The position numbers were made by a program, and so were the translations under genes. 26,759 bases of DNA from a virus (lineage: Duplodnaviria > Heunggongvirae > Uroviricota > Caudoviricetes), in the IMG/VR virus record IMGVR_UViG_2531839665_000020, positions 1 to 26,759 of that record. One strand, given 5' to 3'. A model generated the notes under the pieces. The model was not told where the DNA came from. It saw only the letters and a list, made by a program, of their open reading frames with translations, and searched no databases. Every line of letters starts with the position of its first letter. The first letter of the stretch is position 1. Below, in pieces: positions 22,704 to 25,121 of the stretch.

Positions 22704-25121
22704 ATGAACGCTGATAAAGAAGAAATTGCACTATATTACGAAGCCAAAAATGACAAAGTCAGAAAACGCCTTGGGATTAAAGGTGGTTTTTACTGGCGCA
22801 CAGCAAAAAAATTATCGGTTGCAATATCACGTGGTGTTGCTGCAATGGACGATGCCGGATTTGACGAAGAGGATTTTAAAAAACCCATCCGCGTCCATTT
22901 ACCCGTTGTGAATGACCTTCCACCGGAAGGTGTGTTTGATACTGAATTCTGCAACCGATACGAAAAAGGCGGAGAAGATGGTATCACAATGATACTTATC
23001 GCGCCCTCTGTTCCGGACAAACCAGCCAGTACTGACAATACCAACGTCAACGGCGAAGACATGGCTAAGATTGAGGAGAATATGCTTCTTCCGGTTTCAG
23101 GTCAGATTCTGCCTGTTCGCTGGCTGGCGCAACACAACAGCGAAAAACCGCTCACGCACGTTTCACTGGACAAACTGCGCGCATTACATAACGCACAGGA
23201 TGAAAAACTTCCCGCCGTTACCGCGCTGGCCATCTCAAATAAAGCAGTGCAACTCGAACCGCTGGAGCTTCGGGATTTGTACAAACTGGTGCGAGACACT
23301 GACAAAGTTTTCCCCGCCCCCGTAAATTCGGACCTGGGACTGATGACCTCTTTTATCGAAGCATACCTGGGCGCTGACTACACCGATCGCGGTCTGCTTA
23401 CAAAAGAGTGGATGAAAGGAAATCGTGTTTCACGCATCAGCCGCACGCCATCCGGCGCTAACGCTGGCGGCGGCATTCTTACCGATCGCGGCGAAGGTTT
23501 TGTCCACGATGATGCGTCAGTGGCGCGTGACGTAGCCACTGGCGTACTGGCCCGTTCAATGGACGTGGATATTTATAACCTTCATCCCGCGCACGCTAAA
23601 CGCATTGAGGAAATTATCGCTGAAAATAAACCGCCATTTTCTGTGTTTTTCAGCAAATTCATCACCATGCCGGGCCACAAGGATTACTCCCGCGCCATCG
23701 TGGTTGCGTCCGTGAAAGAAGCACCAATTGGTATAGAGGCTACTCCCCACCGTGTCACCGAATACCTGAATAAGGTGCTGACTGAAACCGATCATGCCAC
23801 CCCTGATCCGGAAATCGTGGATATTGCCTGTGGTCGCTCCTCTGCCCCGATGCCGCAGCGTGTAACAAAAGAAGGAAAACAGGATGATGAAGAAAAACCG
23901 CAGCCATCTGGCGCAATGGCAGATGAACAGGCAACGACTGAAGCAGTGGAACCGGATACAACTGAACATAATCAGGACACGCAGTCGATGGATGCTCAGC
24001 CACAGATAAATTCTGTTGATGCGAAATATCAGAAACTGCGTGCAGAACTCCATGAAGCCAAGAAAAACATTCCACCCAAAAATCCTGTCGATGCAGATAA
24101 ATTACTGGCTGCTTCTCGAGGAGAATTTGTTGAAGGGATTAGCGACCCGAATGATCCAAAATGGGTGAAGGGGATCCAGAGTCGCGATGATGATGACCAG
24201 AATCAGGATAAAGCGGAACAAAACAGCCCAAATGCGTTACAAAACGAGCCAAAAACAAAACAACCTGAACCAGTAGTGCAACAAGAACCAGAAAAAGTTT
24301 GCACCACATGTGGTCAGACCGATGGCGGCAACTGCCCTGATTGTGGAGCGGTAATGGGTGACGCAACCTACCAAGAGACATTCAACGAAGAAAGCCAGGA
24401 TGAAGCCCGGAAAAAAAATCCGGAGGAAATGGAAAATGCCGTGCTCCCGAATAAGCAATGCACCGAAGGCGATCAACATGCCAATGGCAATAATGAAACA
24501 GGCGAGACAGCAAATCCCTTAATTACGGTGAACGGTCATCACGTTATCACATCCACCAGCAGGACGTGTGACCATCTAATGATCGACCTTAAAACCATGG
24601 GAAAAAATCCTGATGCCCCGATTATCTCAATAGGTGCAATATTTTTCGATCCGCAAACCGGAGATATGGGACCGGAATTTAGTAAGACTATCGATCTGGA
24701 AACTGCTGGCGGAGTCATTGATCGGGACACCATTAAACGGTGGCTTAAGCAATCACGCGAAGCGCAATCTGCCATTATGACCGATGAAATCCCGTTAGAT
24801 GATGCACTGTTACAATTGCGGGAATTTATCGACGAAAACTCCGGTGAATTTTTTGTTCAGGTCTGGGGAAATGGAGCCAACTTCGACAACACGATTTTGC
24901 GCCGTTCATACGAACGGCAGGGGATCCCCTGCCCGTGGCGTTACTACAACGATCGCGATGTACGCACAATCGTTGAGCTGGGGAAAGCCATAGACTTCGA
25001 TGTCAGAACTGCTATCCCATTCGAAGGTGAGCGCCATAATGCACTTGATGACGCCCGTTATCAGGCAAAATACGTTTCAGCTATCTGGAAAAAACTGATC
25101 CCGAGTCAGGCTGATTTTTAA
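22704..25121 (+). CDS. Large early-left protein with C-terminal DEDD-type (DnaQ/Rv2179c-like) 3'-5' exonuclease-like domain and internal zinc ribbon
   Basis: 805 aa; C-terminal motifs LMIDLKTMG...[24 protein letters not shown] and [10 protein letters not shown] align to DEDD exo motifs [20 protein letters not shown] zinc ribbon in an acidic low-complexity linker; ATG preceded by GAGG. Confidence 0.8.

Follow-up and report, generated by a model that had tools for sequence, protein, structure and literature searches.

Does a lysine at the place of a catalytic glutamate give a prophage exonuclease a new active site, or does it break the enzyme? The question is raised by a gene at positions 22704–25121 (plus strand, as for all features of this gene given below) in a stretch of Caudoviricetes DNA of 26,759 nucleotides (nt), positions 1 to 26,759 of IMG/VR record IMGVR_UViG_2531839665_000020 (Duplodnaviria; Heunggongvirae; Uroviricota), which we call the window. 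The gene is a complete open reading frame (ORF) of 805 amino acids (aa) with an ATG start and corresponds to RefSeq WP_000990639.1, labelled 'exonuclease'. A preliminary description, made from the sequence alone, recognized a DEDD-like domain at its C terminus in which motif I reads IDLKTMG (Lys codon AAA), and proposed that the domain may be catalytically altered or use a variant geometry. Our analysis indicates that the window allele most probably represents a defective copy and not a novel type of enzyme. We consider it probable that the gene is the early-left 'exonuclease' of a Qin/Tritos-type prophage, composed of two modules, and that E630K is a loss-of-function allele in a prophage remnant that brings no new active-site geometry.

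The C-terminal DEDDh domain and its motif I

The C-terminal part of the protein is a DEDDh 3'-5' exonuclease domain of the Rv2179c/DexA family. Pfam PF16473 matches aa 624–795 (24573–25088) over model positions 2–177 of 177 (E = 7.7e-63, 211.8 bits at a cutoff of 27). An AlphaFold2 (AF2) model of aa 612–805 has a predicted local distance difference test score (pLDDT) of 85.4 and a predicted template-modelling score (pTM) of 0.83. The best Foldseek match of this model is T4 DexA (8KEL; E = 6e-11, template-modelling score 0.74), and the next matches are RNase T, Orn (oligoribonuclease)/REXO2 and DnaQ domains, at a probability of 1.00, identifying a DnaQ/RNase-H-like fold. The domain is thus DEDD-like, as had been read from GNGANFD and HNALDDA, and its type is DEDDh. 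Motif II comprises GNGANFD at aa 722–728 (24867–24887), with D728 aligned to DexA D119. Motif III is H778-x4-D783 (25035–25052), the DEDDh spacing, and lies within HNALDDA at aa 778–784.

Motif I of the DEDDh family is D-x-E. In the window copy it reads D628-L-K630 (24585–24593), within IDLKTMG at aa 627–633, with AAA at 24591–24593 in place of the family codon GAA (Glu). A single-sequence phmmer alignment lays LMIDLKTMG on DexA FIIDFETMG, so that K630 stands opposite the motif-I Glu, and a profile of 35 family sequences lays lmiDletmg on the same DexA segment (E = 9.7e-16 for the profile against DexA). Strand 1 of the AF2 model comprises aa 624–631 and contains K630. The preliminary description allowed that the true motif I might lie elsewhere; an intact D-x-E was looked for and not found, and the PF16473 match begins at aa 624. 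The catalytic set D628, E630, D728, H778 and D783 is present in almost all copies of the domain; the window copy keeps every member except E630.

DexA keeps the catalytic set of the epsilon subunit, D12, E14, D103, H162 and D167 (PMC12153337). Counting residues along the aligned 8KEL chain, in which FIIDFETMG starts at residue 4, identifies D7 and E9 as the motif-I residues of DexA. The legend to Figure 5 of PMC12153337 gives the DexA catalytic residues as D7, E12, D119, D191 and H186; the alignment count puts the motif-I Glu at E9. Recognition of 5-hydroxymethylcytosine (5hmC) by DexA involves W152 and D169. Y748 of the window protein falls on DexA W152, with the invariant W745 three residues before it, by a count on an alignment that ends at DexA residue 162, short of D169.

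Two other residues of the domain, R679 and K796, are off the 90% family consensus. Residue counts here and below refer to the best 120 homologue clusters, and their totals differ between positions (98 at residue 630, 119 at residue 728). R679 (24738–24740) stands where 105 of 116 clusters have Trp, the first residue of a WW motif common with T4 DexA, and also occurs in some alleles with Glu630. K796 (25089–25091) replaces a Gln found in 107 of 109 clusters.

The motif-I Glu is essential in DEDD exonucleases, as mutagenesis of Klenow E357, epsilon E14 and RNase T E25 established. E630, the counterpart of epsilon E14 and DexA E9, is the motif-I carboxylate that helps hold two catalytic metal ions in the DnaQ fold. 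Because E630K puts a cationic side chain in place of this carboxylate, and by analogy with the mutants of the three enzymes just named, we infer that it abolishes or strongly reduces metal-dependent exonuclease activity. The G-to-A change at 24591, which yields E630K, would thus cost the protein its two-metal catalysis, or cripple it, but would not disturb the fold or the N-terminal module.

Rarity and origin of the lysine allele

Comparison with homologues, which had been left to decide whether Lys is a conserved feature of the domain, gives a clear negative. Position 630 is Glu in 96 of 98 clusters and Lys in two, which have 167 and 649 member sequences; D628, H778 and D783 do not vary at all, and position 728 has Asp in 116 of 119 clusters. 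A 61-mer centred on codon 630 has 26 exact matches with AAA in complete E. coli records and 3283 with GAA. The 805-aa background itself exists with E630 (P0171, P0161, P0228), and the inducible phages Tritos and vB_EcoS-640R1 read MIDLETMG. Since Glu prevails among the clusters, in the 61-mer counts, in the same protein background and in these two phages, Lys630 is a derived missense allele, produced by the G-to-A transition at 24591.

The domain as such is very common. Its 722-nt C-terminal segment matches 4065 of 5426 complete E. coli genomes (~75%), in up to 7 places per genome, with roughly 8100 copies in complete genomes overall, and E. coli O103:H2 12009 carries 6 copies. The exact window protein (P0164) is found on at least 1000 contigs. 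Seventeen complete genomes carry the exact C-terminal allele at the Qin site, including strains of O103:H2, O45:H2 and O121 as well as two genomes whose size is not that of Shiga toxin-producing E. coli (STEC). In nine further genomes Lys is found in a different protein, of 823–830 aa, from a potB/potC-site prophage; the N terminus of this protein is unrelated to RecE and 98% identical to the K-12 ydfE pseudogene. Both Lys backgrounds have the haplotype at 24517–24724 in common, which also occurs with a Glu allele (strain DA33133); the T linked to it at 24623 is frequent, with 469 records. A single origin of the Lys allele followed by transfer of a recombination patch appears to be a simpler reading of these sequences than recurrence of the change.

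Several observations weigh against the favoured reading, a loss-of-function allele in a prophage remnant. The potB/potC-site prophage of strain FCI48 is a near-complete 45-kb lambda-like element, so the K allele also resides next to a different N-terminal module in a prophage that is not a remnant, and it either spread there by recombination or arose twice. This two-prophage pattern fits neutrality, but would also fit a role that was retained or selected. The ORF (805 aa) is intact in every K-allele genome examined, and beyond K630 only R679 and K796 are atypical, which leaves the domain without an independent sign of decay.

These observations can also be accommodated by a selected 'dead nuclease', an explanation that we regard as unlikely. 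Here the K630 domain would fold, dimerise and bind 3' ends, and would be kept for a non-cutting function, for example as a dominant-negative partner of active copies from co-resident prophages, as a 3'-end protector, or to spare the N-terminal module while removing a harmful nuclease. An ORF that is intact in every one of the 26 complete genomes carrying the allele, together with the abundance of the exact protein on contigs, would fit such a role, but clonal expansion of the heavily sequenced O103:H2, O45:H2 and O121 lineages accounts for the frequency, and the allele is found in just 26 of about 4000 carrier genomes. Its presence in two types of prophage whose N-terminal modules are unrelated could likewise reflect selection, yet the local haplotype common to both backgrounds fits a single origin followed by patch recombination. 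Mixed oligomers are conceivable with up to 7 domain copies in one genome, as DexA reportedly works as a dimer or tetramer. The family alignment contains no compensatory or co-varying changes, which counts against a selected dead nuclease. We give little credence to the proposal that the E630K allele is maintained as a dead DNA-end binder, moved between the two prophage types by recombination, that modulates co-resident active paralogues via mixed dimers or protects 3' ends during RecBCD/Chi recombination in multi-prophage STEC genomes.

An active enzyme with altered chemistry is very improbable. It would require Lys630 to stand in partly for a metal ion, or E666 of a second D-x-E stretch to supply the missing carboxylate. 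That stretch, DLETAGG at aa 664–670 (24693–24713), indeed lies 36 residues after D628, as first described, and the recurrence of a D-x-E-T-x-G string at this distance is, besides the intact D628, D728, H778 and D783, the sole point in favour and looks like coincidence. As a replacement motif I DLETAGG fails on several counts. Position 664 is Asp in 84 clusters and Ser in 26, and position 666 is Glu in 71, Asp in 17 and Val in 7, so these residues change in many apparently canonical relatives. Proteins that keep E630, such as P0051, contain TIDLETAGG unchanged. The stretch aligns to the non-catalytic DexA segment 'kfDLksqkG' and follows strand 3 of the model instead of lying on strand 1. Neither co-variation of DLETAGG with Lys nor any compensatory change was found in the homologue-cluster alignment, and Lys is not conserved elsewhere in the family. 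The family alignment and the AF2 model thus mark DLETAGG as a variable, non-catalytic stretch. Of the original proposal, altered catalysis is plausible in the form of lost activity, whereas variant geometry by way of DLETAGG finds no footing. A one-base sequencing or assembly artefact can practically be dismissed, as the identical AAA 61-mer recurs in 26 complete genomes that were assembled independently and represent several countries and serotypes, and two protein clusters carry Lys.

The reading that we favour, inactivation by E630K, makes the window copy a rare allele, probably an inactivating one, of a prophage gene that is widespread, was annotated before and has recently been catalogued. 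Single copies of this gene can be catalytically dead though annotated as intact, and the natural E630K allele offers a ready negative control for exonuclease function.

A RecE-type N-terminal half

The N-terminal region, aa 1–607 (22704–24524), is of the RecE type, as comparison with K-12 RecE and NCBIfam NF007259 indicates. BLASTP aligns aa 58–607 with residues 50–591 of Rac RecE (b1350) at 72% identity. The similarity ends exactly where the RecE nuclease domain starts, and none is found past RecE residue 591. Pfam PF06630 (Exonuc_VIII) covers aa 56–187 (22869–23264; E = 2e-24), and NF007259, the RecE equivalog model, matches aa 1–608 over model positions 1–603 of 877 with 1021.9 bits, below its cutoff of 1269. 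The PD-(D/E)XK 5'-3' nuclease domain that forms the C terminus of RecE is absent from the 805-aa protein, and PF16473 is found there instead. On these alignments the protein is a domain swap, in which the front half of RecE is followed by a DnaQ-fold 3'-5' exonuclease that replaces the 5'-3' PD-(D/E)XK nuclease.

The preliminary description singled out a zinc ribbon in an acidic linker. The CxxC-x7-CxxC motif is present at aa 533–547 (C533, C536, C544 and C547; 24300–24344) but is not peculiar to this protein: motif reading together with the RecE alignment finds all four Cys kept in Rac RecE, and the acidic, Gln/Pro-rich linker is likewise inside the RecE-homologous region. A 2023 review describes the function of the RecE N-terminal region as unknown (PMC11611040). 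An AF2 model of aa 1–460 has a mean pLDDT of 32.6, too poor for a fold assignment, with admissible homologues that are all at least 97% identical.

The RecE-type N-terminal family is narrow, with 229 representatives at E ≤0.001 among 1.84 billion. Its 75 long representatives end in a DEDDh domain (16), a RecE-type nuclease (18) or a RecT fusion (2), or have no detectable C-terminal domain (39). In the two RecT fusions, for example P0243 (703 aa), the RecE N-terminal region runs straight into a RecT domain (PF03837, E = 1.2e-42) without an intervening nuclease domain; these proteins may be deletion fusions. The DEDDh domain in turn is found with another partner, since a YdfE-type module is joined to the same domain in other strains and in phage Tritos. 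To judge from these sequences, the domain comes with at least two interchangeable N-terminal modules, RecE-type and YdfE-type.

For annotation this has a direct consequence. The abundant prophage genes of this kind go under the names 'exodeoxyribonuclease VIII', 'RecE family' and '3'-5' exoribonuclease', but are RecE in their N-terminal half only, and their nuclease polarity is opposite. The wider family, a very common domain with two interchangeable front halves, is of more interest than the Lys allele.

Prophage context and known relatives

Between ydfJ and rspB, at the Qin locus, E. coli O103:H2 12009 (NC_013353.1) has a sequence identical to the window. The exonuclease gene belongs to an early-left transcription unit that also contains, upstream on the plus strand, the DicF small RNA (sRNA; 22012–22063, Rfam RF00039, 77 bits) and, by annotation, dicB (22238–22426) and a ydfD-like DUF1482 gene (22423–22611). 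As DicF lies upstream of dicB, the exonuclease gene occupies the distal position in a dicBF-type operon. After a gap of 71 nt follow the annotated excisionase gene xis (25193–25444, plus strand) and the tyrosine integrase gene int (25464–26759, plus strand), with the host gene rspB next in the source genome. The position directly before xis-int, without an adjacent RecT-like annealase gene, is thus as first described. RecT, Erf and Beta genes are annotated nowhere in the prophage, and the RefSeq annotation of the whole prophage contains a nuclease and no annealase, single-stranded DNA-binding protein (SSB) or anti-RecBCD gene. A scan for promoters and terminators around the exonuclease gene gave nothing over chance level, and PADLOC defence models gave no match to the 805-aa protein.

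The prophage is a remnant without head, tail and terminase genes, in which an IS3 element and several genes with frameshifts or truncations are present. Its left end (window 1–7158) abuts a truncated ydfJ and a ydfI pseudogene. Virulence-type cargo and marks of decay include a DinI-like gene, a frameshifted nleG7, the IS3 element at 5945–7158 and the adhesin gene paa (15260–16018, minus strand). Also on the minus strand are the hokD toxin gene with a sok antisense RNA (Rfam RF01794, 103.9 bits) at 14766–15068, a full-length member of the STnc100 sRNA family (RF02076, 102.2 bits) at 10747–10913, upstream of a SASA-family esterase gene, and, opposite to the early-left genes between ydfC and DicF, a 114-aa ORF at 21241–21585 with a C-terminal CxxC...CxxC and no Pfam match (RefSeq hypothetical WP_001399959.1).

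Chi (GCTGGTGG) occurs at 12 sites in the window, between 5874 and 24560, as compared with 0.89 expected from shuffles. Ten of the 12 are on the minus strand, opposite to int transcription. One minus-strand site, at 24553–24560, lies inside the exonuclease gene. Six sites cluster within 650 bp at 13248–13897, inside a DUF968 gene (12889–13938), with no repeat unit.

On the best-supported reading, alleles with Glu630 would be Mg-dependent 3'-5' exonucleases that act on DNA ends and are tethered to a RecE-type or YdfE-type module; DNA ends are the predicted substrate because the closest relative, DexA, is a DNA exonuclease. By analogy with known systems, our best guess for the role of the active enzyme is degradation of DNA from 3' ends, or control of 3' tails, in lambdoids that are rich in Chi, depend on RecBCD and have no annealase. 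Exclusion of other phages would be another candidate role, as reported for EcD, which belongs to a different subclade. EcD ('HREX'; NAR 2025, PMC12153337) is a chromosomal E. coli homologue of DexA that can act as an anti-T4 exonuclease. Identity of EcD with the window domain was considered and rejected, as the cloning primers for EcD give a MIDTET start and a TIPETYD end.

Among solved structures T4 DexA (8KEL) is the closest, at ~20% identity, with the DEDDh motifs and the conserved WW motif in common. DexA and EcD, each roughly 200 residues long, stand alone, whereas the window domain is the C-terminal part of an 805-aa protein; it has the DexA-like fold of the HREX/EcD type but lacks the complete catalytic set, the motif-I Glu being gone. 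Rv2179c, the Mycobacterium tuberculosis 3'-5' exoribonuclease on which PF16473 was founded, is related through the full-length match to the family model, but gave no direct sequence match in the Protein Data Bank search.

Rac RecE (exonuclease VIII) resembles the window protein in its front half and in location, as its gene also lies in an early-left operon near xis-int. RecE, however, ends in a 5'-3' PD-(D/E)XK nuclease and its gene is followed by recT, whereas the window protein ends in a 3'-5' DEDDh domain and its gene is followed by xis, with no recT. Because its nuclease polarity is opposite to that of RecE, the window protein is not a RecET-type recombinase.

K-12 Qin ydfE occupies the same gene slot at the same locus (dicB-ydfD-ydfE...intQ-rspB), but it is an IS2-truncated fragment of the YdfE-type N-terminal module and unrelated to the window N terminus. 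The K-12 gene (L011:4079-4999) is 98% identical over 256 aa to the Pfam-less N-terminal module of L003:3068-5557. It was tried as a truncated counterpart of the window protein and rejected, because it does not match the window N terminus and matches the other N-terminal type. The literature search returned no paper naming ydfE together with an exonuclease.

The early-left region of the window matches that of phage Tritos. A 2025 survey (Genome Res, PMC12315714) takes Tritos as prototype for lambdoids with a nuclease, without annealase, SSB and anti-RecBCD genes, and with abundant Chi; the same survey notes DnaQ-type nuclease genes near int. Tritos has the gene order of the window, cI-ydfA/C-DicF-dicB-ydfD-exonuclease-xis-int, and the same DEDDh domain, with 89% nucleotide identity to the window over linker and domain. 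The features by which the survey defines the Tritos class (PMC12315714, Table 1) are all found in the window, namely a nuclease without annealase, SSB or anti-RecBCD gene and abundant Chi, mostly in one orientation. Two differences stand out: the N-terminal module of Tritos is YdfE-type and that of the window RecE-type, and Tritos has the canonical MIDLETMG where the window has MIDLKTMG. Among the closest known counterparts of the window gene are the early-left 'exonuclease' genes of Tritos, Qin-type and PPompW prophages, which RefSeq labels 'exonuclease' or '3'-5' exonuclease'.

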